From Lingula anatina (Eukaryota; Animalia; Brachiopoda), in assembly GCA_051362555.1 (NCBI GenBank), contig CM120644.1:24760534-24824533 (forward strand): a DNA stretch of 64,000 nucleotides, written 5' to 3'. The number at the start of each line of letters is the position of its first letter. The first letter of the stretch is position 1. The position numbers were made by a program, and so were the translations under genes. Under the pieces are notes generated by a model, which saw nothing but the letters and a program-made list of their open reading frames with translations, was not told the origin of the DNA and ran no database searches. Below, piece after piece: positions 4,771-64,000 of this stretch.

Positions 4771-4854
4771 CTATTTATATTCCTCCAGGCATATATGACA
4801 CGTTAAAAAATTCTCACTGAAGACGTTGTAGATCTCTTTCGAAGCCATTGCCAT
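4771..4854 (-). pseudogene. TRIM-NHL N-terminal stub A (27-codon mini-ORF MAMASKEIYNVFSENFLTCHICLEEYK*)
   Basis: 4774-4854 is nearly identical to 56635-56715. The rest of the gene is deleted, and the junction supplies an in-frame TAG at 4771-4773. Confidence 0.88.
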
Positions 4855-5499
4855 GGTAAAGGCGCCCAGAGTGGGCACAGCGCCACGCCCCCTACACGCC
4901 GACCGCCACTCTCTACTGATGGTAAAAGCCGTTGCGCACGCTTATGTATCATTTAATATGTTATCTATTCTATTTCATAGTTGTCACCCGATCTCCACAT
5001 CACATCACAGTCAGATGATGTTGTCGATAACCAGAACAGTATCAAAGTCTGAAGCACCAGCTGAGTGCCTGACATATCACTGACACCCCAGAAGAAATGA
5101 ACTGTTCCTTGGCCAGTGCAGGCACCCATGTATTGCGTCACGCTAACCTTAACCTGTACGAATTTAATGGAGAATGGATTTTCTGTTACACATGTAATGT
5201 GTGACGTCTCTCGTATTGGTCCTTATTATAACCCCAGGTACATGTAGCCTACAGTGAGACCAGCTGAGCTGATTGACGTCATACTACTTTAGAAAGCTCG
5301 CGGGAATGCGCGGGGTGGTTGGGGCTGACTTTTTAGCAGTCAGGATGAAACTCCAAGCCTTAGCAAGGCCTTTTTTAGAAACCATTACAAAAGTGACAGA
5401 CAAAACAATTTCGAATCCCTACTGTTGTACAGTGTACAACAGGCTGTAATGGGGCATAACTTGTGAGTAAATACACTGAAAATAACCGTGTATGAATTA

Positions 5500-5723
5500 C
5501 ACACAATGGACAATAGAAGTGTCACCCCTACTGAACCAATACCTTGGTGGGACACTGTTGAATGATATGCTCCTGGTATCATTTTATTAATATCAAATTT
5601 CACCAAAAAAAATGTGGACCAGACATTTAACTACTCAAGATCTGCCTAATTTGATTATTGAATACTTGATTATTATTTGATTACTCTGATTCAGGGGATG
5701 ACACTTCTATTGTCCATTGTGTG
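5500..5723. mobile_element. Tc1/mariner-like MITE (~224 bp)
   Basis: TIR CACACAATGGACAATAGAAGTGTCA ... TGACACTTCTATTGTCCATTGTGTG. TA precedes the left end here, and TA follows the right end in the duplicated copy (~59318), consistent with a TA target-site duplication. Confidence 0.6.
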
Positions 5724-6736
5724 AATGTCAGCTCTTCTTTGTTATCATACAGCCTTCGTCAGTATTTCTAACCTCTCTCTCTGTCTCTCTCTCTCTTCAT
5801 ATGTTGTTTGAGTAGTGAGACTTAGTGATATCTCGGATGCCTTCCATTGTTCGCTATTAAGTGAAATATTGAACCCCATGCTCTTGCAGGGATGTGCATT
5901 GCCTCACCGCGTTATAGCATTATAAAACAATCATATTGTATTATCTGGTATTTTCTACTTTGAACGAAATACTATAGACATAAATAAAAAACGAAATGCA
6001 CACAAGTGGCTTATATCTTTTTCCTTGGAAATATATTTTGAAGGTTTTGATATTCATTAAAGTGACGACAACGACGTCCTTGAGCCTTCAAACATTTATT
6101 CACCAACTCCCTTTGTGCAAGTACTTATACTCTATTTCTCAGTACTCCCTCTACACACTGACCGCCTGCTCTGCTGCTGCCAAAGCCGTTGTGTGCGTTC
6201 ATAAAGTTTTATCGTTTAATCTATACTACGTTAAAACTGTCACCGATTGATTCATCATGATCATATGATGTTGACAATTATGAGGACGTAATCAACGTAT
6301 CCAAACTACTGATAAACTGCAAGTCCATGTGCCAAAGCCGTGACTCGTGTTTATAAATCTTGAGGCATTGTTTGATAGTTATCTATACATACACAATACA
6401 GTCAGGGTGATATCAGGGTATTACGTGATTTATCAGTCATATGCTGCTAGTAGCGGTGTGTGTGTTGTTTCTGTACGTGTGTGTGTGTGTGTGTGTTTCT
6501 GTGTGTGTGTGTGTGTGTGTGAGGAGGGGGGTGAAGTGTCATTCATGAGTCCTAATTTTGCTTGTCATCAAGTTAAATATGATTTTATACCTGGTGTTTT
6601 GACCTACCATCGTAGTACGAAAACATGAATAAAAGTTACTTTTATTATTGATGAATCATTTCACTTAATGACATTGATAGCCAATAGATAAATGGATGGT
6701 GTTTCATATATTAATAATCCTTTACCATTGCATTAT

Positions 6737-6893
6737 CAACTCAGTTACTTATATATCACTCCATTTGTAAGAGGTACGTAACTTTAGGGGTGACTGCAGC
6801 TTTTATCATGACAACTCAGTTACTTATATATCACTTCATTTGTAAGAGGTACGTAACTTTAGGGGTGACTGCAGCTTTTATCATGACAACTCA
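6737..6893. repeat. 75-bp direct repeat x2 plus partial (also at ~60372-60528)
   Basis: CAACTCA starts at 6737, 6812 and 6887; the first two units run CAACTCAGTTACTTATATATCAC...GCTTTTATCATGA. Confidence 0.9.
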
Positions 6894-9055
6894 CATGACA
6901 GTTTTTTTTTTCTTTTTTAACGCAATATTATAAGGATAGAGCCCTAATGCTACGTTTCATGAAATTATAACGAGACAATACATATAATATTCAGAAAAAT
7001 AATATTGGTTGTTTGTGTGAGTTCTGTAGCACCTCCTTTAAATATATGTGGCAACAAGATGTTAAAGGTATCCGAATAATTATATTATACTGTTTTCAAT
7101 TGCCATATATTTTTCTTAACAAGCAACTTGATAATTTAATGCATTGATCAACGGTAACGTTTTGTCCACCTGTCGAAAAGAGTACAATTCAGATATATCG
7201 CGATCATCAATCTAAACGTGTCGAATATTGAGAATTTTAGTATTTTATCAATGAGTTTGATCTAAAGCGCCCCCTTTAAATATGACAACAACTGCAACGG
7301 CAGGTATATAAATAAAATTATCCAATTTTATTTTACATTATAAATTTAATTAATCATCATTTTCAAGGAAGTAAATTTACGTGCAGCTCAATGCTACATG
7401 TACACTGTAAAACACTGTTTGGCTTCATACACGGGTCAGACTTACATGTAGCAAGACTGGTATTACCTTATGAACGCAATGATCTTCAAGTTCAAATGTT
7501 TCCAATGTCAGTGGAATAAGCGGTTACTTAATTTCCATTTATTTCGAAATACACAAAAAATACATGCCAACTGTTCAGCATTCCAGCAATTATAATTAAT
7601 TTCAATCCATACCTCCTTCAATCCCCGTACAGTCCATGTTGTCATCGTTGTTTTCCATAATGAAGTTCAATCACTGAGTCTTTATTTGCTGTTTATGCGC
7701 AGAGCTATGAATTTATATGACGTAATTTTCTTTTATGACACAATATTTATTATGTGACGTTTTAAAAGTCATCTATAAACGACGCCATACCGTCACAATT
7801 TTCTTACAAACGTTGACGTTTTGATGACGCCCTAGGTCTAAAAAGAGTATTTGAAAACAGCGTGCTAGGCAGACATGAATGGATGAAAATGTTGCATAGA
7901 CGGATTGCATGCCTGTTTTTTTTTTCATGGAAAACGCTCTATATTGCTCATCTTTGGGTCTCAAAACTGACATATTGTAAGCGACATGAAAAAAATTATA
8001 TGAGAATTATCAACCAGATAAAAACACATTCATTCCGATTCATTAATTGAGCGATTTTATATCCGTGATTTGCATTCAAAGGACAACCATACCTCCCACA
8101 CCTGGCGGCGGGAAGCAAACGCACGAATATCAGATTTAGATTGAATTTGACAGCTTCTTGAAACATAGAAATCGCCAACTATTTTTTTTCTCACGACTTC
8201 TTTTTAATGATGAATTTGACAACTTGATAATAAAGTGTGAGACACAGTTAACCGACGGTTTTGGTTTCAGCCACAATGTTTTAGCTAGCTCGCGACCCTC
8301 CCTCTCCCCCCCCCCCCCCCCCCCCCCTTAGAGTCCTGGTAGTTCTGTGCGTATTCTTATTTTAAAAACAAATATAATTATGTCAGTGAGAGAAAGCGGA
8401 GGATCTGCTCGTATTTCCTTTCACTTGGTACTATACTTCGTAGTCCCATCAAGACAGTGCACTGTTTGTAAAATAATGTCCGAAGCGACTTCTCCGTCGA
8501 CATAAAAATTGCAAAGACTACTGAAAAAAATTGTTCTGCTGTCGATCGCGTTTATTTACATTTTGAAAAACTGAACCTCAGTGCTAAACAAAATGATGAA
8601 AGATAAAGCAATTCACATCTTCAAGGCCCGTTAGATTTTACTTTTAAAATATCAAGCTGTTTATTATAACCAGCAAAATCTTATCTCTATCATTTGTTTT
8701 ACATTCTATACACGTCATCAACCTGTTAAAACTTTTCACATGAAAATAAATAAAAAGATCAACAATAGGCCAAAATGAAACCCACTGTTAACAGTTAAAA
8801 TCTAAAAGAGAAAATATGTATCTGCAAATGAAAAAAATGTTGACCTGCAAAGGAAGGGAATGCTCAATTTAATAAAAATTGATTGAATCATATGCCGTCG
8901 TATCTCTTCATGAACACATTTATCTAATTCACTTAGAACTTCGGCACAATTCCAACAAACATTGTGGCGGCTATTTGTAAGGTTTGTTCACTACATTTCC
9001 TCAGTTATATTAATCACAATTCAAACATCGTTACAGTTTCAAATCATATAAGTCA

Positions 9056-16814: not shown

Positions 16815-19055
16815 TCATTTCTCGTTAATATACTTATATGTGAATATTTCTCCTTTGGGAAGATCAATTAGGAGTACACATAGGTCACGTCCAGTTCCCA
16901 CAGCAAGCTCCCCGTTACTGTTGACATCAACTGACACAGGTTTCTCAATGCTGTCATTCCTTGTCAAAATTTTACGTAAAAATTTTCCGTCTAAACCAAT
17001 GACAACCACCCTTTGATTACCACTGTCAGCTATGAATATGTGTCCAAATTTATCTACGCACACTCCTCGTGGATTACTCAGTTTTCCGTCTCCACTTCCA
17101 CTTTGTCCTCGTGTTCCATATTGGAACATGACGTCACCCTGGAGTGTCACTGCATACACACAGTGGGCACTGTAGTCGCTGACTATGATTGCATTGATGC
17201 CGTGGTGGTATGCACAGCGCAGTGGACCTTTACTGCTCATTGGGATAGAAATTCTTTTAACAAGTTGAAAAGTTATCATGTCGTACACACAGATGCACTG
17301 TGCACCACTATCACACACGAACACCTTACCCTCTGTACGGCCCACAGTGACACCCCAGGGATCAGACATATCACCCTGACCAAAACATCGGATAACCTGA
17401 CCTGATGTTGAATACTGTCTACAGCATTTATCTCTGCATGTGACCACAAATCTATCGTTACTGACTGTAGTGATACAACTCACCCTTTCCTCTATACTGA
17501 TCTCACGATTACATTGACCTGTGCTAGAGAATACGGACACTGTTTTTTCCCAGTAACCATGTGCAACTAAAGTGCACCCGTCATCTGTGCACTGGATATC
17601 CAATGGTCGGCCACCAACATAAAAACGGATATTCCTCTCTGGATTATCAAGCCACGTAACTTTCTGAAATTCCATCAGCTCGGGATAGTACGCTCTCTCT
17701 TGTTTCAAACTTCCAAAACATACATCAAATGGACCCTGGTATGTTTTGGCCGTAATGGACCCCGTTTTAATGGACAGCTGTGGTTCAGGGATTTTAGGAA
17801 ACTGCAGCACAACGTCCATTTGAGTTTGACCTGGTGTAAATGTTATGTCGTTGATCTTGGTATCCAATACTGGTTCTATTGTCTCTAACTCCTGAATTTT
17901 AGTTTGGAGTTTTTTAGAGTGGGTCATGACCTCGATGTCAGAACCAGTGTCTGTGAGCTGCTGAGCGAAATCACGAATGCTCTGAATAGTAATCTTGTTC
18001 ATTTCTTGCTTGTCCTTTTCAGCTTCTAAAGTTTTTACCTGCGTGGAGGTGAGTGCCTTCACTTTTTTCGTTATTTTTTTGCTTTTGTCATCTATAGCTT
18101 TCTGCATTTTGGTGTAATCTGACTGTATTTTTGTTTCATAAGTTTTCAAGTGCTGTTTGACAGTGCTCAAATATTTGTCCGTCTGTTGACGTAAGTCCTT
18201 CTCTATTTGTTGATAGTAATCTTTAATTTCTCTTGCAATTGTTTTACTGTTTTCTTTTATCTCCTTAGCCATAGCTAATTTCTGAGAATCCACCAAACGA
18301 AGAACCTTTGTCTGACTTTCAGTCAGCCTTTCTTCAGTTTCCACAATAATTGTTTCTGTATTTTCAAAACGAGACAGTTTTTCTATAGTTAGGCATGTAA
18401 GCTTTTCTTGAAGTAGATCTCGTTGAACTTTCACCACATCCCCTATTTTTTTAAAGTCATGTTTACTGTGAGTTTCCAAAATACAATCTCTACATGCCAC
18501 GGTGTCATCCTCTTCACAATAGAATGTCAACAACTCGCCGTCGTGTTTATCGCAGAATTGAGTTTTATCTAAAACTTGCCGCAATTGTTCTCGCACGCTA
18601 GCTGGGTTAACTGAGAAATCGACATGTGACAGAGGTACAAAGTCATGTCCATTTAATGCGGGGATGCTGTCATGCAATTCACGACATGTAGCGCAGAGAT
18701 GGTTGGTTTTTGGACATCCTTGACACAGCAAAGTAGCCTCTTTATGCTTACAATACTCACAAAGTCTCCTCACATGCGCTTTCTGATCTTTCATGAAATC
18801 AGTTACTTTTCTTAGGAAGAAGTTTTTCACAAGAGTTTCTAATCCACCTGGTGGTACAGGGGCCTCTTGGCGACACACGGGACAGGAGAACTTGTTCTTG
18901 ACACCATTCTTGGCTGCATGGTCAGCAATACATTCCAGACAGAACGTGTGGTAACAGGGGAGCACTCTCGGGTCTTTATATTCCTCCAGACATATATGGC
19001 ACGTTAAAAAGTTCTCACTGAAGACGTTACACAGCTCTTTCGAAGCCATTGCCAT
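16815..19055 (-). CDS. TRIM-NHL E3 ubiquitin ligase-like protein (RING-BBox1-BBox2-CC-NHL), 746 aa, single coding exon (G3)
   Basis: Uninterrupted ORF with C3HC4 RING (CHIC-x11-CYH-x2-C-x2-C-x14-CPVC), B-box1 CEYC..CQGC..CATC..H..H and B-box2 CDKH..FYC..CRDC..H..H. NHL repeats include PWGVTV..VFVCDSG and GSGDGKLSNPRGVCVDKFGHIFIADSGNQRV. Confidence 0.96.
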   Translation of the reverse strand: MAMASKELCNVFSENFLTCHICLEEYKDPRVLPCYHTFCLECIADHAAKNGVKNKFSCPVCRQEAPVPPGGLETLVKNFFLRKVTDFMKDQKAHVRRLCEYCKHKEATLLCQGCPKTNHLCATCRELHDSIPALNGHDFVPLSHVDFSVNPASVREQLRQVLDKTQFCDKHDGELLTFYCEEDDTVACRDCILETHSKHDFKKIGDVVKVQRDLLQEKLTCLTIEKLSRFENTETIIVETEERLTESQTKVLRLVDSQKLAMAKEIKENSKTIAREIKDYYQQIEKDLRQQTDKYLSTVKQHLKTYETKIQSDYTKMQKAIDDKSKKITKKVKALTSTQVKTLEAEKDKQEMNKITIQSIRDFAQQLTDTGSDIEVMTHSKKLQTKIQELETIEPVLDTKINDITFTPGQTQMDVVLQFPKIPEPQLSIKTGSITAKTYQGPFDVCFGSLKQERAYYPELMEFQKVTWLDNPERNIRFYVGGRPLDIQCTDDGCTLVAHGYWEKTVSVFSSTGQCNREISIEERVSCITTVSNDRFVVTCRDKCCRQYSTSGQVIRCFGQGDMSDPWGVTVGRTEGKVFVCDSGAQCICVYDMITFQLVKRISIPMSSKGPLRCAYHHGINAIIVSDYSAHCVYAVTLQGDVMFQYGTRGQSGSGDGKLSNPRGVCVDKFGHIFIADSGNQRVVVIGLDGKFLRKILTRNDSIEKPVSVDVNSNGELAVGTGRDLCVLLIDLPKGEIFTYKYINEK

Positions 19056-20908: not shown

Positions 20909-21023
20909 CAGAAAGAACGTGTGGTAACAGGGGAGCACTCTCGGGTCTATTTATTCCTCCAGACATATATAACAAGTTAGGAATTTCCTAGTGAAAGACG
21001 CTGTAGAGCTCTTTAGATGCCAT
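20909..21023 (-). pseudogene. TRIM-NHL N-terminal stub B (degenerate RING start)
   Basis: Minus strand reads MASKELYSVF/frameshift/..FLTCYICLEE*IDPRVLPCYHTF. A degenerate promoter cassette follows at ~21055-21150. Confidence 0.85.
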
Positions 21024-21256: not shown

Positions 21257-24200
21257 TGTAACATGAAAATCTGACTCCCATGAAAATGTGACTCCCCAGT
21301 CAGATTTTCATTATGAAAATGTGACTCCCCAGTCAAATTTTCATAATGAAAATCTGACTCCCCCCGTGAAAATTTGACTCCCCCATCATAAAACTTCATA
21401 AAACTTATTTTATTTTGAGTATATGACTGTGATCTTGTAGTATGTAAAATGGATGATACGTTGGCACATTTTTTGTAGTTTGCAGTGAAAATTTTGATGA
21501 AAAAATAAGAAAATTAAAAATGAGCACATAATGAAAATCTGACTCCCCCATCATAAAACTTTATAAATCTTATTTTATTTTGAGTATATGACTATGATCT
21601 TGTAGTATGTAAAAAGGAGGATAGATTGGCACTTTTTTGTAGTTTGCAGGTGAAAAATTATGTGAAAAAGTAAGAAAATTAAAAATGTCCACTTAATCGC
21701 CTATTGTCTCCCCTATGAAAAAGTTAATTAATATTTGATGATCATTTCATCACCTTTTCGTTTAGGATACTTTAGTGATCTTGTAGTATGTAAAATGGAG
21801 GATACATTGGCACATTTTTTGTAGTTTGAAGGTGAAAATTTTAATGAAAAATAAAGAAAATTAAAAATGTGCACAAAATGAAAATCTGACTCCCCCGTGA
21901 AAATTTGACTCCCCCATCACAAAACTTCATAAATCTTATTTTATTTTGGGTATATGTCTGTGATCTTGTAGTAAGTAAAATAGTTGATACATTGGCACAT
22001 TTTTTGTAGTTTGCAGTGAAAATGTTAATGAAAAAATAAGAAAATTAAAAATGTGCACATAATGAAAATCTGACTCCTCCATGAAAATTTGACTCCCCCT
22101 CCACAAAACTTCATAAATCTTATTTTATTTTGAGTATATGACTGTGATCTTGTAGTATGTAAAAAGGAGGATAGATTGGCACTTTTTTGTAGTTTGCAGG
22201 TGAAAAATTATGTGAAAAAGTAAGAAAATTAAAAATGTCCACTTAATCGCCTATTGTCTCCCCTATGAAAAAGTTAATTAATATTTGATGATCATTTCAT
22301 CACCTTTTCGTTTAGGATACTTTATGAAAAATATATTGGAAATATTTAAAGGTTTGATGATAAAATAGTGAAAGCATGAAAAAGAAATCATGAAAATCTT
22401 TATTTTTACACCCATGAGATTTGGACTCCCATGGAGAAAAGGACCTATTTTATATTCAGTCACCATACCACTGTTTTCCACATTTTTTGCATAGAGATGG
22501 ATATTTTGTCATTATTTGAAAGTTTGATGATGAAAATTTTGGTCAATATTTTTAAAACAAGTATCCATCTTTATTCTTGTAGGTTTTGCACTCCCATGTC
22601 AAAACTCTACATTTTTAACACAAGAAATTGGCCCCATCGCCTTTTTATTTAATTCTTCTTATATAGCATACCCAACAAAACACTTGCTTTTGTTTTCCCA
22701 TTATTTTCCCCAAAGCTAGATGAAAGATAGGGGTAAATTAAGCAAAAAGGATAATAAGTATGCATTCTTGCGCCCATAGGACTTTGACGACCCATCTTAC
22801 AAATTAAATGTTTCATATTTAATATTTTTTCCTTTAAGCTACGACATATGAATAAGTTACCACCAAGCATGTCACAGTCCTATCACATTTGAAAGTTTGG
22901 TGGTGATAACTTTTGTCAAAATTAAGAATTTTTTAGCAGCATTATTCACATGTTGGTGATATTTCCTTACTATTGTGTTCTTAAATTCCAATATGATTTT
23001 TTTTAGTCAAGGGGCAAAAGTATTTTGATTTAGCCTAGTGTGCAAAGTAATCATTAAGTTTTCACTGCCACAAGGTAAAATATTGAAGAGAAGCAGAATT
23101 TTCTTGTCTCAGTGGATCCTTTTTACATTCATCTACATTTTGTTGATATTGTATGCACTTCATTGAAAAAATATTCTTTTCTGATATGACACAAAACAAT
23201 TTTTATTTTCATATAGCTTAGTGTGCAGAGTTATCATTATATATACAATGAGAAGTATGTGGAAAATAGTGATATAATGACTGAATAAAAAATAATTGTC
23301 CTTTTCATGGGTGTAGAATAAATATGATACTGAATTTCTCACTATTTTTAAAATTCAAACACTTATTGCAAAAATTTTTACCCACAAAATTTAAATATTC
23401 CACATATGTTCCAGGGGCGGATTTAGGCCGTCTTCTGGGTCTTCCAGAAGACGGTCATATTTTCAAGTTTACATTGACGGGTATCTATCTTTTTCTGTCG
23501 GAAGACGGTCAAAAATGAAGGACGGATCCACAAGGATAATTTGGAAGAGTGTCAAAAAATATCTCTGGATCCGCCCCTGTGTTCTCCATAAGAAAACTAA
23601 AAAGTAGAAACATTTAAATGTGTGCTAAATATGAAATAAGTGCTTTTAACTAGGGGAGTCAAAATCCTACGGGTACAAGAATGCAAATTTATTATCCATT
23701 TTTCATTTATTTTCACGCAGTATTTTACCATAAAACTTTTTAATATTTCCAATAATTTTTTTTCATAAGGTATCATTAAAGAAAAGTTGTCAGAATGATC
23801 ATCAAACATCAAATAAATAGCTTTTTATAGGGGAGCTATTGGGTGTTAGAAAACAAATTCTTAATTTTTCTTACTTCATGTGTTTTGTTACTTTTTTCTC
23901 TCAATTTTTTAAATGTGCACATTTTCAATTTTCTTATTTTTTCATTAAAATTTTCACTGCAAACTACAAAAAATGTGCCAATGTATCATCCATTTTCCAT
24001 ACTACAAGATCACAGTCATATACTCAAAATAAAATAAGATTTATGAAGTTTTGTGGAGGGGGAGTCATATTTTCATGGGGGAGTCAGATTTTCATTATAT
24101 GCACATTTTTAATTTTCTCATTAAAATTTTCACTGCAAACTACAAAAAATGTGCCAATGTATCAACCATTTTACATGCTACAGGATCACAGTCATATACT

Positions 24201-24727
24201 CAAAATAAAATAAGATTTATGAAGTTTTATGATGGGGGAGTCAAATTTTCATGGGGGAGTCAGATTTTCATTATGTGCACATTTTTAATTTTCTCATTTG
24301 TTCATCAAAATTCTCACTGCAAACTACAAAAAATGTGCCAATGTATCAACCATTTTACATACTACAAGATCACAGTCATATACTAAATTAATTAGAGATT
24401 AATGCATGTTTTTTTGTAGGGGAGTCAAATTTTCATAGGGGAACCACATTTTCATTATGTGCACATTTTTAATTTTTCTTTTTTTTAAAGAAAATTTTCA
24501 CCTGCAAACTACAAAAAAGTACCAATGTATCATCCATTATGCATACTACAAAATCATAGTCATTTACTCAAATAAAATGAGATTAATGAATGTTTTTTTT
24601 GGGGGAGTCAAAATTTCATAGGGGGAGTCACATTTTCATTATGAAAATCTGACTGGGGAGTCACATTTTCATAATGAAAATCTGACTGGGGAGTCACATT
24701 TTAGGGGAGTCAGATTTTCATGGTACA
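21257..24727. mobile_element. Non-autonomous Ginger1-like DNA transposon (3.5 kb)
   Basis: Termini TGTAACATGAAAATCTGACTCCC ... GGGAGTCAGATTTTCATGGTACA, with a perfect 4-bp TSD CCGG (21253-56 and 24728-31). Both arms are built from inverted ~180-bp subterminal repeats, and no transposase ORF is present. TGT..ACA ends with a CCGG TSD are the described Ginger1 signature. Confidence 0.85.
23412..23579. mobile_element. Small MITE nested in the Ginger-like element (hAT-like TIR)
   Basis: CAGGGGCGGAT ... ATCCGCCCCTG inverted termini, flanked by the direct repeat TGTTC (23407-11 and 23580-84). Confidence 0.7.
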
Positions 24728-27004
24728 CCGGAATCTAGAACCTAGGGTACTACAGTAGGGCCTACTTCAAAATTGTTAGGACGAATTTTTAAATTTAGTC
24801 ATTCCGGCTGGTTCTGCTTTATTCCTGCTGATTACGAATAAGTGTGACAGGGGCTTTACATGGCAAACTCAACTAGAGAACGCATTATATTGAATACGTT
24901 TGGTATAATGACAAGAATGCCTATAATTTTAACAATAAGATTTTTTATAGTTTTACAGTAGAACAGCTGGAAGGGGAGTGTTTCAACGGCGGAACATACG
25001 AGTTGTGTGCTGTGAACAGGTGCAATGAATTAAAGGGTTGCTACGGGAGGTTTTAACTTCTTCACTTGAAGACCACCTGCAGGAACCAGTGTTGATTGGG
25101 TGACACGGAGGCGGTAACTGGTCGGGAAAGACGAGTGGTGGAACGGAAATAAACGTCATTTATGAATTGCAATCGTCGACATCGTAAATCACTATAGTTG
25201 CCAAGCAACTCAGTTACTTGCAGACACCCTGTTACTTCTTTACTTATAATTTCTATTAAATGATATATTAAACACCATGTGTCGGGGACACTTAATAATT
25301 CATAGACAATGTCAGTAACTTCAAGTTATAACTTTTGTAAACCATAATTCTCTATAATACATTATGTCAAGTCTGAAGAAGCAGAGTAAGCCTTGTTTAC
25401 GAGTCTGATTAAGAAGCCAGTGATAAGGAAGTTCATGAAATCAATGTCTGGAGTACAGACTAAAGGGTGTAATATTGAAAAGAGGGGCAGAATGTACCGG
25501 AGCAGGCAACGAGTTAGCATTAAACGATTGAAACTGGTTATTGTTGTCAGCGTTGGATTTCCTCATAGCGATCTACACGTAACTATTTTGACCGAGAACT
25601 TGGAAGATGTTATTTGCGCGTTATCTAAACTTAAAGTTTCCAACGGTGTCCGTATTTCGAGTCCATTTCTAAATTACATTGATATCTAAAATTTGCGCGG
25701 TTCCGGTCACGTGGTAATATAGTATGTGTCGTAGATAACAGACATGCGTAATAGTGCCATCCACTACACGCGGACATATTTCTGCATTTAATAAAATGAT
25801 ATAATGTTGTTTATTCTTATTTTCATATATGTAAACTGGAGATATGTTAAAACATAATATTTCTTATTTCATAACATCCTACATTCAAGGTGTGAGTTTC
25901 GCTTATCTTTCTACGTGCATAGTGGACGTGGGAAAGCACTAAATGGCTTACCACAAATATTTTCAGCCACTTTAGTCAGAAGAACAGGACGTTGGGGGAA
26001 TCCCCTTGCCGTTTTACATCTACGTGTTGTTATTTTAATATATTCTTGAGATATAAAATATAAAGGGAATGAATGCCGTTATTTATTGTAGCTTATCCAA
26101 TAACTTGAATGAAATTAAGTCAGTAGCTTACATTGTTATTTTAGGTACCACGTTTTACTGCAAGTAAACTGCGTTCGGTGGAAATAAGCCAGGCTACTCC
26201 TCGGCTTGTTTCATTTCAAAATGTTTTCCTTTTTTCCAAAAACATTCACAAATAATTGCTTCCACTCAAAATATAGGTCACCCCCCCTTTGGGGTCCTGG
26301 TAGTCCTGTACATATTGAAATATTACAGCACAGTCCACAAACCGCGGGGGGCGTAGGGGGATCTATTAAATTCTCTCACTGGTCCGCTAAAGACTGTAAA
26401 CTATTTGTTTTTAATATAATATAATGTTTTAAAATAATGTCCGGAGCGACTCCACATTCAATATTAAAACCAAAGACTACTGAACAAAAGAGATGTTCTG
26501 CTCCCAACCGCGCTTATCTACATGTTGCAAAACTGAACCTCAGTGCAAAACCAATAAATAAATAAATACATATTTACATAAATAAATAAAAATAAAATGA
26601 TAAAAACAAAGCAGTTAACGTCATTAGGACTCATTTAGTTTCAGTTCTAAAACATCATGTTATTAACAGTATCTGTATCACTTTTCACACATTCTATAGA
26701 CAACACCTATCTTTAAAACTTTTCACATAAAAAAAAAAAAACAAATTTGAGAAGATGAACTATATTCATACTTAGGTCAAAATAGAAGTCTAGGGTGAAC
26801 AGCTAAATTCTACTCATGAAAAAAGCATCTGCTAATAAAAGAAAAAAATACATGCTAATATGCAAAGAACAAAGGTGCTCAATTTAAGTGATAAAACTAA
26901 TTATTTCATATGTCTCTGTATTTCTTTACTTTGCTACAAATTCAATATCTCTACACAACAAACATAGTAAGGCACGTCCATTACATTTTCCTCGGTGATA
27001 TTAA

Positions 27005-27348
27005 TTACAATTCAAACATCTTGATAGTGTCAAACCATATATACTTATACGTCGATATTAAACCGCTCGTAGTTCCAACAGCAAGCTCCCCGTAACTGTT
27101 GACATCAACTGACTCAGGGAAGCTTATGTTGTCACTCTTTGTACAAATGTTACGTAGAAATCTTCCGTCTGAACCAAGGACAACCACCCTGTGATTGCCA
27201 CTGTCAGCTATGAACATGTGTCCAAGCTTATCTACGCAAACTCCTCGTGGATAACTCAGTCGTCCGTTTCCACTTCCACTCTGACCTAGTGCTCCGTATT
27301 GGAACATGACGTCACCCTAGGGTGTCACTGCATACACACAGTCGGCAC
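27005..27348 (-). pseudogene. TRIM-NHL C-terminal fragment (last ~2 NHL blades)
   Basis: Encodes ..CVYAVTP*GDVMFQYGALGQSGSGNGRLSYPRGVC..GTTSGLISTYKY, with a CAG>TAG stop at 27317-19. Homology ends at 27348, where it is fused to the 3' flank of G5. Confidence 0.9.
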
Positions 27349-27580: not shown

Positions 27581-29824
27581 TCATATTAACCATTTCTCAG
27601 TAATGTACTTATGTGTGGATATTTGTCCTGTAGATATTAGACCGCCTTGTTCAGTTCCAACAACAAGCTCTCCTTTGCTGTTGATATTAACTGACACAGG
27701 ATTCTCAATGCTGTCATTCCTTGTCAAAATGTTACGTAGAAATTTTCCTTCTGAACCAAGAACAACCACCCTGCGATTACCACGGTCAGCTATGAATATG
27801 ACCCCAAACTTATCTACGCACACTCCTAGTGGAGAACTCAGTTGTCCGTCTCCACTTCCACTCTGACCTTGTGCTCCGTATTGGAATATGACGTCACCCT
27901 GGGGTGTCACTGCATACACACAGTCGGCACTGTAGTCGCTGACTATGATTGCATTGATGCTGTGGTGGTATGCACAGCGCAGTGAACCTTTACTGCACAT
28001 TGGGATAGGAATTCTGTTTACAAGTTGAAAAGATATCATGTCGTACACACAGATGCACTGTGCACCACTATCACACACGTACACCTTACCCTCTGTACGG
28101 TCCACAGTGACACCCCAGGGGTTAGACATATCACCCTGACCAAAACATCGAATAACCTGACCTGATGTTGAATACAGTCTACAGCTATTATCTCGGCATG
28201 TGACCACGAATCTATCGTTACTGACTGTAGTGATACGCCTCGCCCCTCCTTCTATACTGATCTCACGATTACATTGACCTGTGCTGGAGAATACAGACAC
28301 TGTTTGAGCAAAGGATAAGTCACCATGTAGAACTAACATACAACCGTCATCTGTGCACTGGGTATCCCGCGGCCAACCCTTCACGTTAAAACAAAAATTC
28401 CGCTCAGGCTTATCAAGCCAGGTTACTCCCAGAAATTCCTTCAGCGCAGGATAGTTCGCTCTCTTTTGTTTTAAACTTCCAAAACATGCATCCAAGGGCC
28501 CATGGTATGTTTTGGCCGTAATTGTCCCCGTTCTAAGTTTCAGCGGCCGTGGTTCAGGGATCTCCGGGAACTGTAGACCAGTGTTCATTTTTGTTTTCCC
28601 TGGTGTAAATGTTATGTCGGTGATATTGATATCAAAATCTGGTTCTACTGCCTCTAACTCATGTATTCTAGTTTGGAGTTTTTTAGAGTGGGTCATGACC
28701 TCGATGTCAGAACCGGTGTCTGTGAGCTGCTGAGCAAAATCACAAATGCTTTGAATGGAAATCTTGTTCATATCTAGCTTGTCCTTTTCAGCTTCTAAAA
28801 CTTTCACCTGCGTGGAGGTGAGTGCCTTAACTTCTGTCGTTGTTTCGTTGCTTTTGTCATCTATAGATTTCTGCATTTCGATGTATTCTGACTGTACTTT
28901 TGTTTCATAAGTTTCCAAATGCTGTTTGACAGTGGTCAAATACGCGTCGGTCTGTTGACGTACGTCCTTCTCTACTTGTTGATAATAATCTTTGATTTCT
29001 CTTTCAATAGTTTTACTGTTTTCTTTTATCTCCTTTGTCACAGCTATTTTTTGCGAGTCCACCAAACGAATAACCTTTTTCTGATTTACTGTCAGTCTCT
29101 CTTCCGTTTGTACAATAACCTTTTCTGCCTTTTCAAAACGAGATAATTTCTCAGTAGGGAGACATCTCAATTTTTCTTGTATTAGATCTCGTTGAACTTT
29201 CACCACATCCCCTAATTTTCTAAAATCGTGTTTGCTGTGGACTTCTACAATACATTCCCTGCATATAATAGTGTCATCATTTTCACAATAGAATGCCAGC
29301 GGTTCTCCGTAGTGTTTCTCGCAGTATTGAGTTTTATCTAATACGTGGCGTAATTGTTCTCTTATACTAACTGGGTTAGCTGACGGGTCTATTTGTGACA
29401 GAGGTACAATCAAATGGCCCTTGCAATATGGAATTTTGTTGTGAACATCACGACATGTAGCGCATAGTTGGTTAGTTTCTGGGCAAACTTTGCACATGAC
29501 AGTGGCCTCTTTATGGTTACAATATTCACAAAGTCTCCCCTCAGGCGTTTTCTGGCCTTTCATGAAATCTGTTACTTTCCTCAAAAATAAGTTCTTCACG
29601 AGAGTTTCAAACCCACCTGGTGGTACAGGGGCCTCTTGGCGACACACGGGACAGAAGAACTTGTTCTGGACACCATTCTTGGCTGCATGGTCAGCAATGC
29701 ATTCCAGGCAGAATGTGTGGTAACAGGGGAGCACTCTCGGGTCTTTATATTCCTCTAGACATATATGACACGTTAACAAGTTCTCACTAAAGACGCTGCA
29801 CATCTCTTTCGAAGCCATTGTCAT
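27581..29824 (-). CDS. TRIM-NHL protein, ~747 aa, single coding exon (G5)
   Basis: Uninterrupted ORF with the same architecture as G3. The first ATG is at 29824 (the ORF-track start at 29848 is a GTG). Confidence 0.96.
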   Translation of the reverse strand: MTMASKEMCSVFSENLLTCHICLEEYKDPRVLPCYHTFCLECIADHAAKNGVQNKFFCPVCRQEAPVPPGGFETLVKNLFLRKVTDFMKGQKTPEGRLCEYCNHKEATVMCKVCPETNQLCATCRDVHNKIPYCKGHLIVPLSQIDPSANPVSIREQLRHVLDKTQYCEKHYGEPLAFYCENDDTIICRECIVEVHSKHDFRKLGDVVKVQRDLIQEKLRCLPTEKLSRFEKAEKVIVQTEERLTVNQKKVIRLVDSQKIAVTKEIKENSKTIEREIKDYYQQVEKDVRQQTDAYLTTVKQHLETYETKVQSEYIEMQKSIDDKSNETTTEVKALTSTQVKVLEAEKDKLDMNKISIQSICDFAQQLTDTGSDIEVMTHSKKLQTRIHELEAVEPDFDINITDITFTPGKTKMNTGLQFPEIPEPRPLKLRTGTITAKTYHGPLDACFGSLKQKRANYPALKEFLGVTWLDKPERNFCFNVKGWPRDTQCTDDGCMLVLHGDLSFAQTVSVFSSTGQCNREISIEGGARRITTVSNDRFVVTCRDNSCRLYSTSGQVIRCFGQGDMSNPWGVTVDRTEGKVYVCDSGAQCICVYDMISFQLVNRIPIPMCSKGSLRCAYHHSINAIIVSDYSADCVYAVTPQGDVIFQYGAQGQSGSGDGQLSSPLGVCVDKFGVIFIADRGNRRVVVLGSEGKFLRNILTRNDSIENPVSVNINSKGELVVGTEQGGLISTGQISTHKYITEKWLI

Positions 29825-43892: not shown

Positions 43893-46082
43893 CTAAGCGA
43901 TATACATATACGCGGATATTTTTCCTCCGGCGGTCCCAAGAACAAGCTCCCCGTTACTGTTGACATCGAGTGACAAAGGAGGATAAATGACGTCACTTTT
44001 CGTCAAAATGTTACATATAAATCTTCCGTCTGGACCAAGTACAACTACCCTGTAATTGCTGTTGTCAGCTATGAATATATGTCCAAACTTATCAACGCAC
44101 ACTCCTCGAGGATGATTTAGTTGTCCGTCTCCACTTCCACTCTGACCTCGTGCTCCGTATTGGAACATGACGTCACCCTGGGGAGTCACTGCATACACAC
44201 AATGGGTGCTGAAGTCGCTGACTATGATTGCATTGATGTGGTGGTATGCACAGCGCAGTGGACCTTTACTACACATTGGGATAGGAATTTTGTTAACAGG
44301 TTGAAAAGATTCCATGTCGTACACACAGATGCACTGTGCACCACTATCACACACGTACACCTTACCCTCTGTACGGTCCACAGTGACACCCCAAGGGTTA
44401 GACATATCACCCTGACCAAAACATAGGATAACCTGACCTGATGTTGAATACAGTCTACAGCATTTATCCATGCATGTGACCACGAATCTATCGTTACTGA
44501 CTGTAGTGATACACCTCACCCCTCTCTTTATACTGATATCACGATTACATTGACCTGTGCTGGAGAATACGTACACTGTATCACGAAACTTGTAATAACC
44601 ATGTAAAACTAAAATACAACCGCCATCTGTGCACTGGATATCCCACGGCAAATTCCTCACGTTAAAACAAACATTCCGCTCCGGTTTGTCAAGCCAGGTT
44701 ACCTTCAGAAATTCCTTCAGCGCAAGATAGTTCGCTCTCTTTTGTTTTAAACTTCCAAAATACGTATCCAAAGGACCCTGGTATGTTTTGGCCGTAATTG
44801 GCCCCGTTTTGATGGATAGCTGTGGTTCAGGGATTTTAGGAAACTGTAGCACAACGTCCATTTCTGTTTGCCCTGGTGTAAATGTTATGTCGGTGATCTT
44901 GGTGTCAAAGACTGGTTCTACTGTCTCTAACTCCTGTATTTTAGTTTGGAGTTTTTTAGAGTGGGTCATGACCTCGATGTCAGAAGCGGTGTCTGTGAGT
45001 TGCTGAGCGAAATCACGAATGCTCTGAATGGAAATCTTGTTCATTTCTAGCTGGTCCTTTTCAGCTTCTAAACTCTTCACCTGCGTGGACGTGAGTGCTT
45101 TCACTTCTGCCGATAATTTCTTGCTTTTATTATCTATAAATCTTTTCATTTCGATGTAATCGGACTGTACTTTTGTTTCATAAATTTCCAAATGCTGTTT
45201 GACAGTGGTTAAATACGCGTCGGTCTGTTGACGTACGTCCTTCTCTACTAGTTCATAATAATTTTTGATTTCTTTTTGAATAGTTTTACTGTTTTCATTT
45301 ATCTCCTTGTGCATATCAATTTTTTGAGAATCCACCAAACGAAGAACCTTGGTCTGATTTTCAGTCAGCCTGTCTTCGGTTCGAACAATGACATTTTCTG
45401 CCTTTTCAAAACTAGACAGTTTTTCGGTTGGAAGGCATTTTATTTTCTCTTGTATTAGATCGCGTTGAACTTTCACCACATCCCCTATTTTTTTGAAATT
45501 GTGTTTGCTGTGGGTTTCTACAATACATTCTCTGCATATAACAGTGTCATCATATTCACAATAGAATGCCAGCGGTTCTCCGTCGTGTTTGTCGCAGAAT
45601 TGAGCTTCATCTAATACGCGGCGTAACTGTTCTCGCATGTTATCCGAAAAGTCGACATGTGACAGAGGTACAAAGTGATGTCCATTTAATGCCGGTATTT
45701 TGTCATGGATGTCGCGGCAAATAGCACACAGTTGGTTGGTTTTGGGACAACCTTGGCACAGCAAAGTGGCATTTTTATGGTTACAATACTCACAAAGTCT
45801 CCCTTCGGGCGCTTTTTGGTCTTTAATGAAGTTTTCTACTTTCCTTAAAAAAAAGTTTTTCACAAGAGTTGCTAACCCACCTGGTGGTACGGGGGCCTCG
45901 TGACGACACACGGGACAGGAGAACTTGTTCTGGACACCATTCTTGGCTGCATGGTCAGCAATACATTCCAGACAGAACGTGTGGTAACAGGGTAACACTC
46001 TCGGATCTTTATATTCCTCCAGACATATATGACATGTTAAAAAGTTCTCACTGAAGACGTTATAGAAGTCTTCCATCGCCAT
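43893..46082 (-). CDS. TRIM-NHL protein, ~729 aa, single coding exon (G6)
   Basis: Uninterrupted ORF with the same architecture. The first ATG is at 46082 (MAMEDFYNVFSENFLTC). Confidence 0.96.
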   Translation of the reverse strand: MAMEDFYNVFSENFLTCHICLEEYKDPRVLPCYHTFCLECIADHAAKNGVQNKFSCPVCRHEAPVPPGGLATLVKNFFLRKVENFIKDQKAPEGRLCEYCNHKNATLLCQGCPKTNQLCAICRDIHDKIPALNGHHFVPLSHVDFSDNMREQLRRVLDEAQFCDKHDGEPLAFYCEYDDTVICRECIVETHSKHNFKKIGDVVKVQRDLIQEKIKCLPTEKLSSFEKAENVIVRTEDRLTENQTKVLRLVDSQKIDMHKEINENSKTIQKEIKNYYELVEKDVRQQTDAYLTTVKQHLEIYETKVQSDYIEMKRFIDNKSKKLSAEVKALTSTQVKSLEAEKDQLEMNKISIQSIRDFAQQLTDTASDIEVMTHSKKLQTKIQELETVEPVFDTKITDITFTPGQTEMDVVLQFPKIPEPQLSIKTGPITAKTYQGPLDTYFGSLKQKRANYLALKEFLKVTWLDKPERNVCFNVRNLPWDIQCTDGGCILVLHGYYKFRDTVYVFSSTGQCNRDISIKRGVRCITTVSNDRFVVTCMDKCCRLYSTSGQVILCFGQGDMSNPWGVTVDRTEGKVYVCDSGAQCICVYDMESFQPVNKIPIPMCSKGPLRCAYHHINAIIVSDFSTHCVYAVTPQGDVMFQYGARGQSGSGDGQLNHPRGVCVDKFGHIFIADNSNYRVVVLGPDGRFICNILTKSDVIYPPLSLDVNSNGELVLGTAGGKISAYMYIA

Positions 46083-46212
46083 CTTGGTTATTTTATCTCC
46101 AAGGCTGTGCACAGAGCTGTGTAGACGCGGACCCTCTCGGGTTATTGGTGCAAAAAATTCCCTGCATTCATTTTCCTTTTAGTATGTAAATATGATGATG
46201 GCCCAATTTTAA

Positions 46213-49206: not shown

Positions 49207-49679
49207 GGTTTATGTCTCCTCCATCTCAGTGTACCACCAACTTTTATGGTCTCATTCATAGCAAGAAAGAAGGCAACAAGGAGTATTGATTGTTCGTGAT
49301 TTGGCCAAACAAGGCCGCTTTTATTATATAACCCCTCTATCCTGATCGTTATAACAATAATAACAATGTAGCAAATTGTTGGCTGTATTAAATGTTATGG
49401 CCTTAGGGATAAATATTATATATCAAGTATTCAATAAGACTCATCATCCTAAAAATTATGATGCGACGAGTCAGCAAAAGTTATTATTTACCAACAATTT
49501 TGCACAAATTTCATTTGTGGGGTTGCAAAGAGGCCATAACCTTGACTGGTGCCCAAACGCACTGGGCAAGGAAAACCCCACAAAGGAAAGCATGAAGTAA
49601 TCCAATGCAGTTTGGAGAACAATGAACTTCCACAAAAATAATGGCTATTAGTAAAAGGAAAATGAGTAAGTAAGTGAAT

Positions 49680-49845: not shown

Positions 49846-49896
<51 letters not shown>

Positions 49897-50324: not shown

Positions 50325-50355
<31 letters not shown>

Positions 50356-50523: not shown

Positions 50524-50562
<39 letters not shown>

Positions 50563-50986: not shown

Positions 50987-51025
<39 letters not shown>

Positions 51026-54501: not shown

Positions 54502-56715
54502 TCACTTCTTATTTATATACTTATACGTGGATATTTCACATCTGTCAGTTCCAACAACAAGCTCTCCGTTACTGTTGTCATCTATTGACAAAGGAGATCC
54601 AATATCATCATCCCTTGTTAAAATATTACGTAGAAACCTCCCGTATGAACTCAGGACAACCACCCTGTGATTATTGAAGTCTGCTATGAATATGTGTCCA
54701 AACTTATCTACGCACACTCCCTCTGGATTCCTCAGTTGTCCGTCTCTACTTCCACTCTGACCTCGTGCTCCGTATTGGAACATGACGTCACCCTGGGGTG
54801 TCACTGCATACACACAGTGGGCCTTGTAGTCGCTGACTATGATTGCATTGATGCCATGGTGGTATGCACTGCTTAGTGGACCTTTACTGCACATTGGGAT
54901 AACAATTCTGTTAACAATTTGAAAATATATCATGTCGTACACACAGATGCACTGTGCACCACTATCACACACGTACACCTTATACTCTGTACGGTCCACA
55001 GTGACACCACAGGGGTCAGACATATCACCCTGACCAAAACATTGGATAACCTGACCTGATGTTGAATACAGTCTACAGCATTTATCTTTGCATGTGACCA
55101 CGAACTTATCGTTACTGACTGTAGTGATATACCTCACCCCTCCCTCTATACTGATCTCACGATTACATAAACCTATGCTTGAAAATACAGACACTGTTTT
55201 ACCACGGAAAAAGTCACCATGCCCAACTAAAATACACCCGTCATCTGTGCACTGGATATCACGAAGGTCACCCTTAACATTAAAACAAGCACTCAACTTT
55301 GGCGTTTCAAGCCATGCGACTTTCTGAAATTCCATCATCTCGGGATAGTACGCTCTCTCTTGTTTCAAACTTCCAAAATGTGCATCCAAGGGACCCCGGT
55401 ATGTTTTGGCCGTAATGGACCCCGTTTTGATGGATAGCTGTGGTTCAGGAATTTCAGGAAACTGCAGCACAACATCCATTTCTGTTTGCCCTGGAGTAAA
55501 TGTTATGTCGGTTATCTTGGTATCAAACACTGGTTCTACTGCCTGTAACTCCTGAATTCTAGTTTGGAGATTTTTAGAGTGGGTCATGACCTCGATGTCA
55601 GAACCGGTGTCTGTGAGTTGCTGAGCGAAATCACGAATGCTCTGGATGGAAATCTTGTGCATTTCTTGCTTGTCTTTTTCATCTTCTAAAGTCTTCATCT
55701 GCGTGGAGGTCAGTGACAGAAGTTCTGCCGTTATATCGTTGCTTTTGTCATCTATTACCTTTTGCATTTCACTATAATCGAATTGTACTTTTGTTTGGTA
55801 TGTTTTGAAATGTTGTTTTACACTTATTAAATACGCGTCGGTCTGTTGACGTACCTCTTTTTCTACTTGTTGATAACAATCGTTGAATTCTCTTTCAATG
55901 GCTTTGCTGTTTTCCATTATCTCCTTCGTCATAGCCAATTTCTGAGAATCCACCAAACGAAGAACCTTTGTCTGATTTTCTGCAAGCCTCTCCTCCGTTC
56001 GTACAATGGCATACTCCACCTTCTCAAAACGAGACAGTTTCTCAGTAGGGAGGCGTTTAAGCTTCTCTTGTATTAGATCTCGTTGAACTTTCACCGCATC
56101 CCCCAATTCCTTGAAATTGTGTTTGCTGTGGACCTTCACAATGCACTCCCTGCATATAATAGTGTCATCGTTTTCACAATAGAATGCCAGCGGTTCTCCG
56201 TCGTGTTTGTCGCAGTGTTGAGCTTTATCTAATACGTGGCGTAAATGATCTCGCATGTCAGCAGGGTTAACTGAGAAATCGACTTGTGACAGAGGTACAA
56301 GCAAATGGCCCTTGCAAGACGGTATTTTGTCGTGAACGTCACGACATGTAGCGCACAGTTGGTTGGTTTTTGGACATCCTTGGCACAGCAAAATGGCCTC
56401 TTTATGGTTACAATACTCACAAAGTCTCCCTGCGGGCGATTTCTGATCTTTCATGAAGTCTGTTACTTTTCTTACATAGAAGTTTTTCACGAGAGTTTCT
56501 AACCCACCTGTAGGTATGGGGGTCTCTTGGCGACATACGGGACAGGAGAACTTGTTCTGGACACCATTCTTGGCTGCATGGTCAGCAATACATTCCAGGC
56601 AGAACGTGTGGTAACAGGGGAGCACTCTCGGGTCTTTATATTCCTCCAGGCATATATGACACGTTAAAAAATTTTCACTGAAGACGTTATAGATCTCTTT
56701 CGAAACCATTGCCAT
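54502..56715 (-). CDS. TRIM-NHL protein, ~737 aa, single coding exon (G7)
   Basis: Uninterrupted ORF with the same architecture. The first ATG is at 56715 (MAMVSKEIYNVFSENFLTC). Confidence 0.96.
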   Translation of the reverse strand: MAMVSKEIYNVFSENFLTCHICLEEYKDPRVLPCYHTFCLECIADHAAKNGVQNKFSCPVCRQETPIPTGGLETLVKNFYVRKVTDFMKDQKSPAGRLCEYCNHKEAILLCQGCPKTNQLCATCRDVHDKIPSCKGHLLVPLSQVDFSVNPADMRDHLRHVLDKAQHCDKHDGEPLAFYCENDDTIICRECIVKVHSKHNFKELGDAVKVQRDLIQEKLKRLPTEKLSRFEKVEYAIVRTEERLAENQTKVLRLVDSQKLAMTKEIMENSKAIEREFNDCYQQVEKEVRQQTDAYLISVKQHFKTYQTKVQFDYSEMQKVIDDKSNDITAELLSLTSTQMKTLEDEKDKQEMHKISIQSIRDFAQQLTDTGSDIEVMTHSKNLQTRIQELQAVEPVFDTKITDITFTPGQTEMDVVLQFPEIPEPQLSIKTGSITAKTYRGPLDAHFGSLKQERAYYPEMMEFQKVAWLETPKLSACFNVKGDLRDIQCTDDGCILVGHGDFFRGKTVSVFSSIGLCNREISIEGGVRYITTVSNDKFVVTCKDKCCRLYSTSGQVIQCFGQGDMSDPCGVTVDRTEYKVYVCDSGAQCICVYDMIYFQIVNRIVIPMCSKGPLSSAYHHGINAIIVSDYKAHCVYAVTPQGDVMFQYGARGQSGSRDGQLRNPEGVCVDKFGHIFIADFNNHRVVVLSSYGRFLRNILTRDDDIGSPLSIDDNSNGELVVGTDRCEISTYKYINKK

Positions 56716-62876: not shown

Positions 62877-64000
62877 TCATTTCTCATTAATATACTTGTA
62901 TGTGGATATTTTTCCTCCGGTGTTTACACCTGGGAGTTGGACAAGTTCAGTTCCAACAACAAGCTCACCCTTACTGTTGACGTCAACTGACGCAGGATCC
63001 TCAATGCTGTCATTCCTTGTCAGAATGTTAGGTAGAAATCTTCCGTCCGAACCAAGGACAACCACCCTGTGATTACCACTGTCAGCTATGAAAATGTGTC
63101 CAAACTTATCTATGCACACTCCATCTGGGTACCTCAGTTGTCCGTCTTCACTTCCACTCTGACCTCGTGTTCCGTATTGGAACATGACGTCACCCTGGGG
63201 TGTCACTGCATAGACACAGTGGGCCCTGCAGTCGCTGACTATGATTGCATTGATGCCGTGGTGGTATGCACATCGCAGTGTGCTCTTACTGCACATTGGG
63301 ATAGGGATTCTGTTTACAAGTTGAAAAGATATCATGTCGTACACACAGATGCACTGTGCACCACTATCACACACGAATACCTTACCCTCTGTACGGTCTA
63401 CAGTGACACCACAGGGGTCAGACATATCACCCTCACCAAAACATCGGATAACCTGACCTGATGTTAAATACAGTCTACAGCATTTATCGTAGCTTGTAAC
63501 CACGAATGTATCGTTACTAACTGTAGCGATATATTTCACCCCTGCCTCTATACTGATCTTCCGCTTACATTTACCTGCACTGGAGAATACTGACACTGCT
63601 ACATTATGTAAAACTAAAATACAACCGTCATCTGTGCATTGGATGCCCCACAGTGGCCAGCCCTTAACATTAAAACAAACTTTCCGCTCTGGCTTGTCAA
63701 GCCATGTTACCTTACTTGTGACCTTCTGAAATTCAGTCAGGTCTTGACAGTGACCTCTTTCTTGTTTCAAACTTCCAAAACATGCATCCAAGGGACCCCG
63801 GTATGTTTTGGCCGTAATGGACCCCGTTTTAATGAACAGCGGTCGTGGTTCAGGGATTTTAGGAAACTGTAGCACAACATCCATTTTTGTTTTCCCTGGT
63901 GTAAATGTTATGTCAGTGATCTTGGTATCAAAGACTGGTTCTAATGTCTGTGACTCCTGAATTCTAGGTAGGAGTTTTTTAGAGTGGGTAATGACCTCCA
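62877..64000 (-). CDS. TRIM-NHL protein, 3' half (G8; 5' part lies outside the window)
   Basis: The frame is open from the window edge (EVITHSKKLLPRIQ..) through the full NHL domain to the stop at 62877. Intactness of the 5' half is unknown. Confidence 0.88.
   Translation of the reverse strand, partial: EVITHSKKLLPRIQESQTLEPVFDTKITDITFTPGKTKMDVVLQFPKIPEPRPLFIKTGSITAKTYRGPLDACFGSLKQERGHCQDLTEFQKVTSKVTWLDKPERKVCFNVKGWPLWGIQCTDDGCILVLHNVAVSVFSSAGKCKRKISIEAGVKYIATVSNDTFVVTSYDKCCRLYLTSGQVIRCFGEGDMSDPCGVTVDRTEGKVFVCDSGAQCICVYDMISFQLVNRIPIPMCSKSTLRCAYHHGINAIIVSDCRAHCVYAVTPQGDVMFQYGTRGQSGSEDGQLRYPDGVCIDKFGHIFIADSGNHRVVVLGSDGRFLPNILTRNDSIEDPASVDVNSKGELVVGTELVQLPGVNTGGKISTYKYINEK

Follow-up and report, generated by a model that had tools for sequence, protein, structure and literature searches.

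The window, by which we mean the whole stretch of 64,000 nucleotides of Lingula anatina DNA that was analysed, holds a tandem array of single-exon TRIM-NHL genes, all on the minus strand, comprising five uninterrupted copies, one of which runs off the window edge, and several broken ones. The copy that provides the numbering used here, G3 (16815..19055, minus strand), starts at an ATG at 19055 and encodes 746 aa without interruption in a single exon, with a RING, two B-box motifs, a putative coiled-coil region, a linker and an NHL propeller; the segment 16815-17640 represents its C-terminal ~275 codons and stop on the minus strand. The other uninterrupted paralogs, all on the same strand, are G5 (27581..29824), G6 (43893..46085), G7 (54502..56715) and G8 (62877..64000), the last having a frame open from the G3-equivalent residue 375 to the stop, with its 5' part beyond the window. 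The broken copies, likewise on the minus strand, are P2 (9056..11249), a pseudogene of full length whose frame is shifted three times, near codons 234, 466 and 617; P1 (1354..3073), which has a frameshift near codon 276 and is cut off within blade 2; the fragment F5 (27038..27346), covering blades 4-6 and containing an in-frame stop; a 5' stub of a G7-like copy that comprises its first 27 codons (4774..4854); and a second 5' stub from another copy (20909..21023). The turnover of the array is of the birth-and-death type. The 5' leaders upstream of the ATGs are of three distinct types, one at P1 (3073), the first stub (4854), G5 (29824) and G7 (56715), another at P2 (11249) and G3 (19055), and a third at G6 (46085), which suggests that the genes are chimeric or that their promoters differ. 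A Pfam search with ten further ORFs from the window gave no match for any of them.

The window is also rich in repeats. A segmental duplication of 90-93% identity between 5119-8077 and 58724-61713 (and between 4774-5086 and 56635-56941) pairs the interval between P2 and the stub with that between G8 and G7. P2 and G8 differ at 23 of the 30 propeller slots described below, and the gene bodies differ by 13-17% compared with 2-9% for the intergenic part; because the gene bodies are older than the intergenic part, the duplication was rejected as a clock. Arrays of an ~184-bp repeat are present in both orientations at 21280-22270, 23913-24730 and 57107-58727, and in the last of these the segments 57107-57860 and 58015-58727 face each other as the two arms of a long, imperfect inverted repeat located immediately upstream of G7. 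The strong AT skew at 49660-52740 is due to satellite-like arrays, which consist of a 53-65-bp unit with ATAA runs and a 38-45-bp unit. Furthermore, a 1.1-kb inverted repeat pair of 92% identity (38581-39667 and 42760-43855), which ends just past the G6 stop, possibly represents the ends of a DNA transposon.

Domain organization and propeller model

Pfam matches above the cut-off were obtained in all four full genes (G3, G5, G6 and G7) for an N-terminal C3HC4 RING, the zinc ligands of which are intact, and for the B-box (PF00643). In G3, the RING spans residues 19-61 (18873..19001, minus strand; PF00097/PF13445) and is nearly invariant between copies, and B-box 2 spans residues 165-204 (18444..18563, minus strand). 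A second Cys/His motif was read from the sequence upstream of B-box 2, and a coiled coil is predicted after the B-boxes, where an alignment to TRIM28 RBCC extends over residues 18-288. NHL matches were also found in all four full genes, with only one or two Pfam NHL repeats, blades 1 and 2 being degenerate. No Pfam match to a filamin domain (E<=0.01) was found in the four full genes, in which the linker is ~60 aa long, and none of the four matched a B30.2/PRY-SPRY domain in Pfam. The conserved RING suggests that the proteins could have E3 ligase activity, and the conserved RING/B-box/coiled-coil half may be, by analogy with other TRIM proteins, a shared dimerising E3 module.

An AlphaFold model based on a 23-sequence alignment predicted a six-bladed beta-propeller (pLDDT 89.8) at G3 residues 474-742 (16830..17636, minus strand), closed by an N-terminal outer strand. 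The top Foldseek matches of the model were the NHL domains of TRIM2, Thin, TRIM71 and TRIM3, with E values of 1e-17 to 1e-12. The propellers of the array are ~75% identical to one another.

Distribution of variation over the propeller

The faces of the propeller were assigned by the strand order of the AlphaFold model, taking the b-c and d-a loops as the top and the a-b and c-d loops as the bottom, which is the definition given in the accessible text of PMC4015489. Before counting, 29 of the 278 codons of the propeller region were masked (indel zones and the tail), both masked indel zones being top-face loops. Sites with at least three different residues among the five uninterrupted copies amounted to 21 of 72 at the top, 6 of 60 at the bottom and 12 of 112 in strands, indicating a significant excess of the top over the bottom (Fisher p=0.005). 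A stricter, loops-only definition gave 17 of 60, 5 of 48 and 17 of 136, respectively (p=0.018). The dN was 0.223 for the top, 0.083 for the bottom and 0.088 for strands, and the dS differed little (0.33, 0.29 and 0.22, respectively). In-frame indels among the uninterrupted copies were located at three loci at the top and one at the bottom of the propeller. The clustering of variable slots on the top face, which the first-pass annotation of this DNA had claimed, was thus borne out for the AlphaFold-based faces, and all five of the slot lists given there agree with the translations of G3, G5, G6, G7 and G8 and, where listed, of P2 and the fragment. Most of the change is carried by blades 1, 2, 5 and 6, and blade 3 is nearly invariant, with at least three residues at none of its 13 top sites. 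G3 codons 551-600 in blade 3 (about 17256-17405) are nearly invariant even synonymously (0.033 differences per codon per pair), which may reflect recent conversion or constraint at the nucleotide level.

The individual slots are described here in G3 numbering, with all positions on the minus strand. Blade 1 contains slots 483 (P-1; R/W/L/D/W), corresponding to Arg564 of LIN41, and 485 (P+1) at 17601..17609, together with codon 498 (A/L/L/G/L), at the end of strand b, and the b-c loop 500-505 (17541..17564 with codon 498), which has three length classes among the uninterrupted copies. Slot 541 of blade 2 (17433..17435; D+1; R/R/M/K/Y), which corresponds to LIN41 Lys628 and has a posterior of 0.99 for omega>1, is a further hot site that was absent from the slots annotated earlier. 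Blade 5 contains slots 661 (P-1; N/S/H/N/Y; LIN41 Arg752) and 663 (P+1; R/L/R/E/D; posterior 0.99) at 17067..17075 and the b-c loop 678-681 at 17013..17024 (S/R/N/F/S, G/G/S/N/G, N and Q/R/Y/H/H). In blade 6, slots 704-705 lie at 16941..16946, 705 being K/N/P/S/D with a posterior of 0.99, and the b-c loop 722-735 (16851..16892) falls into four classes of length across the five uninterrupted copies.

Slot 483, the P-1 position of blade 1, is presumably the counterpart of mouse Trim71 R595, a numbering that is based on the length of the mouse protein. Mutation of this mouse residue (R595H) abolishes RNA binding, according to the accessible part of PMC11799773. In section 8 of PMC5908797, 14 residues of zebrafish LIN41 are named as RNA contacts; we placed them by blade register, using residue type and the 47-residue blade spacing in an alignment of mouse TRIM71. 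As a result, all 14 of the contacts named in that section fell on the P-2, P-1, P+1, D+1 or D+2 positions of the repeat, in line with the earlier claim that slots of the flagged types read RNA in LIN41. G3 D627 and S678 align with residues of TRIM2 that number as D640 and N594 with an offset of 463, deduced from the chain length, and the accessible text of PMC9634614 puts D640 and N594 on the top surface.

Site models and neutral expectation

Site models were fitted by a GY94 implementation written for the analysis. In the propeller, the LR was 27.2 for M1a/M2a, 26.8 for M7/M8, the comparison that the first-pass annotation had proposed, and 26.7 for M8a/M8, with an omega of ~13 on ~3% of sites; the models were not significant in the RING/B-box, the coiled coil or the linker. 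The sites above 0.95 were 541, 705, 663, 498 and 483, four of which are top-face slots, and the fifth, 498, lies in a strand, directly ahead of a top loop rich in indels. The LR was 12.3 (p 0.002) when double- and triple-nucleotide hits were allowed and 32 when P2 was added, and each of the five leave-one-out sets kept the signal (p no higher than 0.007). When every block of 30, 10, 5 or 3 codons had its own free rate, the LR was 17.5, 18.5, 10.7 and 8.0, respectively. The signal was confined to the top face, with an LR of 19.7 on its 72 codons and of 3.0 on the other 177. Furthermore, the 16 unmasked P-1, P+1 and D+1 slots of all six blades, including the invariant ones, had an omega of 3.9 on the propeller clock, and when they were measured against the N-terminal clock, which is faster, their omega was 1.7 (p 0.007). 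In models of the whole gene, G3 codons 133 and 138, in the B-box 1 region, and 263 were also flagged (138 with a posterior of 0.99 and the residues D/L/H/L), and the domains that hold them were not significant alone.

These results have to be weighed against a neutral explanation, which we regard as rather improbable: the top loops would be unconstrained and drift neutrally, and gene conversion would have homogenised the propeller frame, producing a contrast that mimics selection. The recombination screening proposed earlier, conducted here by PHI, found recombination over the four full genes (p 0.001), the value in the propeller being p 0.19. As this explanation would have it, the propeller dS (0.20-0.35) was lower than the N-terminal dS (0.38-0.49) with a similar dN. 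Simulation of neutral evolution at the N-terminal dS gave 59 expected pairwise slot differences against 64 observed (p 0.30), and for the wider set of 30 slots 111 expected against 102 observed, so that the slot differences equal the neutral expectation at that clock. A free rate per codon made the test not significant (LR 4.1, p 0.13), and an own dS for the 16 slots gave an omega of 1.8 (p 0.08), both of these tests, run on five sequences, being weak at telling rate apart from omega. The omega of the whole top face was 0.9-1.0, or 0.67 by NG86, and hence not above 1. In simulations of neutral mosaics, the nominal cut-off was passed in 10 of 27 and 18 of 26 cases and the observed LR was reached in 0 of 27 and 1 of 26; since neutral mosaics inflate the LR, the nominal p-value of 1e-6 is overstated. 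Some of the slot changes are of the CpG type (Arg/Trp at 485), and the slot set, drawn from only five uninterrupted copies, was itself suggested by the data.

On the other side, each peak covers one to three codons, the hot codons 541 and 705 have neighbours with low synonymous change (0.067 and 0.058), and the signal survived block rates of 3 codons; conversion tracts would not be expected to spare single codons, and selection is favoured because peaks so narrow would be hard to obtain from neutral conversion. The bottom loops are constrained (omega 0.4), the P+1 and D+1 slots sit at strand ends in the AlphaFold model rather than in the middle of floppy loops, and codons 541, 663, 678 and 705 need several transversions. 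The slots evolve at least as fast as the fastest neutral clock of the gene and faster than the local clock. Taken together, diversifying selection on ligand specificity, as proposed in the first-pass annotation, is likely but not proven: the propeller-only LR and several controls speak for it, and the per-codon rates and the neutral simulation speak against it. For the propeller slots overall, we consider diversifying selection to be quite probable.

Relatives in Lingula anatina

Further evidence against neutral drift comes from separate paralogs of the species. The nearest relatives of the array genes are L. anatina proteins, the best of which are 68-69% identical in the propeller region and 72% identical along the whole protein, and L. 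anatina accounted for the top 8 of 57 matches in one search and 20 of 21 in another. They form at least 26 L. anatina clusters, 16 close and 10 more distant, one of the lists of matches covering the best 120 of 176. The RefSeq proteins of L. anatina named 'TRIM2/3/56/71-like' (P0001-P0008, P0205-P0209, P0323-P0333 and others) belong to the same family and have the same variable slots; the names are automatic, and many of the gene models are truncated. The slots that vary in the array also vary in 15 L. anatina paralogs independent of the window (0.72 vs 0.33, p 2.5e-7; per-site Spearman 0.46), with mis-registered stretches of P0007, P0208 and P0303 excluded from the comparison along with P0323, which has no propeller. 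In a second subfamily, of 10 paralogs, the top was again more variable than the bottom (p 0.011). Parts of the propeller are missing from the RefSeq models P0005, P0006, P0007, P0208, P0209, P0303 and P0324, which, given that the genes of the window are single-exon, may be pseudogenes or mis-spliced predictions. The best 150 matches of a representative search were mostly long bacterial-type NHL repeat proteins and included three Lingula proteins, all of which had already been found. A group of 14 NHL proteins was considered as an ortholog control and rejected, as it is not an ortholog set.

Possible ligands of the propellers

If selection has acted on the top face, its target could be RNA, as in LIN41. 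The basic cavity of LIN41 (Arg564, 581, 611, 676, 707, 752, 770 and Lys628) is mostly lost, K or R being present at 4 of the 8 positions in G3, 2 of 8 in G5 and 1 of 8 in each of G6, G7 and G8. The span of W567, R613 and Y628 in G3 (17172..17357, minus strand) matches the phosphate-anchoring stack of Trp660, Arg707 and Phe722 in LIN41, and mapping by blade register indicates that this Trp-Arg-aromatic stack is present in G3, G5 and G6 and lost in G7 and G8. An equivalent of Asp629 is present in all five copies. By residue counts, the net charge of the top loops is +3, +2, +7, +4 and -2 in the five copies, and that of the bottom loops is negative in all five, from -5 to -7. Because the pocket is mostly lost, the stack is present in three of five copies and the top charge is positive in four of five, RNA binding by the propellers appears possible, and the copies are predicted to have no shared LIN41-like mode of it. 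We judge RNA to be a plausible target, with a chance somewhat short of even, and a protein or another anionic ligand would be the alternatives.

The same features bear on a reading in which selection is real and the targets are host RNAs or proteins, the copies dividing developmental or germline substrates among them as Brat, Mei-P26 and LIN41 did in the distant past. This reading, which we consider more doubtful than neutral drift, accommodates the stack retained in three of five copies and the charge contrast, with top loops of net +2 to +7 in all copies but one and bottom loops of -5 to -7. It would also accommodate the fact that the divergence of ancient TRIM-NHL paralogs is greatest around the top opening, as reported in the accessible parts of PMC9634614 and PMC5908797. 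Among the developmental orthologs TRIM71 and LIN-41, however, the top surface is conserved, according to the accessible part of PMC5908797. In addition, the load of pseudogenes (P1, P2, F5 and the two stubs), the number of L. anatina clusters and the recurrent change at the same codons would fit an arms race better.

Sequencing records and expression

An artefact, in which the copies would be alleles or duplicates of the assembly and the slot differences would be sequencing errors, is very improbable and largely refuted, since the pairwise dS is 0.2-0.5 and contigs of run X1, which is possibly the source sample, match G3 without mismatch at 16909-17048 and 17491-17688, across slots, and G6 exactly at 43940-44053. 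Records aligned to the G6 propeller at >=85% numbered 174, 336 and 464 in three DNA runs and 354 in one RNA run, and contigs or reads of runs other than X1 often break at G6 slot codons, with loose ends at 43980, 44064 and 44119. The summed contig depth of thousands, compared with 30-140 for a single contig, hints at many copies without giving a copy number.

RNA reads aligned to G3 at >=93% numbered 6 in X12, 58 in X15 and 293 in X18, and those alike at >=99% numbered 0, 4 and 1, respectively; among the records listed as matching G3, none was recorded as RNA. All of the mapped depth in X15 has the first mate on the plus strand, which in most stranded libraries denotes minus-strand RNA, minus being the strand of the array genes. 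The TRIM-NHL family is thus transcribed, the reads being evidence for the family and not for G3 in particular.

Proposed mechanism and comparison with known systems

With the alternatives weighed, the reading that we favour, with somewhat better than even confidence, is that of a tandem TRIM-NHL array in which selection has diversified the contacts of the top face and so retuned the binding of each copy, the catch, most likely a molecule of a pathogen or a selfish element, being ubiquitinated or silenced. Each copy would be a dimeric E3 with a common RING/B-box/coiled-coil half. The top face of the propeller would be retuned by point changes and changes in loop length in blades 1, 2, 5 and 6, and exchange of sequence between copies, shown across the gene, would keep the propeller frame similar. 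Each copy would then ubiquitinate or silence what it catches. By analogy with finTRIMs and TRIM56, the targets are likely to be foreign; we infer the E3 activity, the ligand and the immune role.

TRIM proteins are known for NHL domains that act as conserved readers of RNAs in development. If the favoured reading is true, it would carry the arms-race pattern of TRIM5 and finTRIMs over to a new recognition domain and to a phylum whose immunity has been little studied. The ~75% identical propellers also represent a natural panel for examining how few residues set NHL specificity and whether NHL surfaces change between RNA and protein. More tentatively, and with doubt prevailing, lingulid brachiopods might have turned the RNA-reading surface of TRIM-NHL proteins into a rapidly diversifying set of intracellular sensors, each copy recognising a different viral or transposon RNA or protein and coupling it to ubiquitination, as an invertebrate counterpart of TRIM5 and finTRIMs.

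A survey of Lingula immune genes was reportedly made in 2018, and TRIM-like expansions are said to occur in bivalves. In a literature search outside which most subscription journals lay, we found no report of a TRIM-NHL array under selection in Lingula or another invertebrate and no published analysis of the 'TRIM2/3/56/71-like' family of L. anatina; the accessible parts of PMC12373286, PMC9334734 and PMC7783167 contain nothing on TRIM-NHL arrays. The class VII TRIM-NHL proteins LIN-41/TRIM71, Brat, Mei-P26, TRIM2/3 and TRIM32/Thin share the fold of the array propellers, and the slot types of the array equal the RNA contacts of LIN41. Unlike these proteins, whose top face is conserved, the array is young and multi-copy, lacks the filamin domain, and has degenerate blades 1 and 2 and a variable top. 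For TRIM2, a primate screen placed its two selected sites outside its domains, according to the accessible part of PMC3845644.

A RING fragment of TRIM56 was among the best PDB matches of the N-terminal half (68 bits), and TRIM56 likewise has a RING, B-boxes, a coiled coil and an NHL-like tail. It is single-copy in humans and is not known as a diversifying array. Its antiviral action operates via the E3 activity of the RING and the RNA-binding NHL-like tail, as described in the accessible text of PMC6623546. The finTRIM clusters represent a lineage-specific TRIM expansion with positive selection on the C-terminal binding face, according to the accessible part of PMC2657112. Like finTRIMs and primate TRIM5alpha, the array combines a clustered TRIM expansion and a conserved RING/B-box with change focused on the C-terminal binding face. 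The variable domain is the B30.2 in finTRIMs and TRIM5alpha, whereas in the array it is an NHL beta-propeller, in an invertebrate, and induction by a virus or restriction of one characterises factors of the finTRIM/TRIM5 type. The array is likely to extend the known type of diversifying TRIM cluster, with the NHL propeller as the variable domain.
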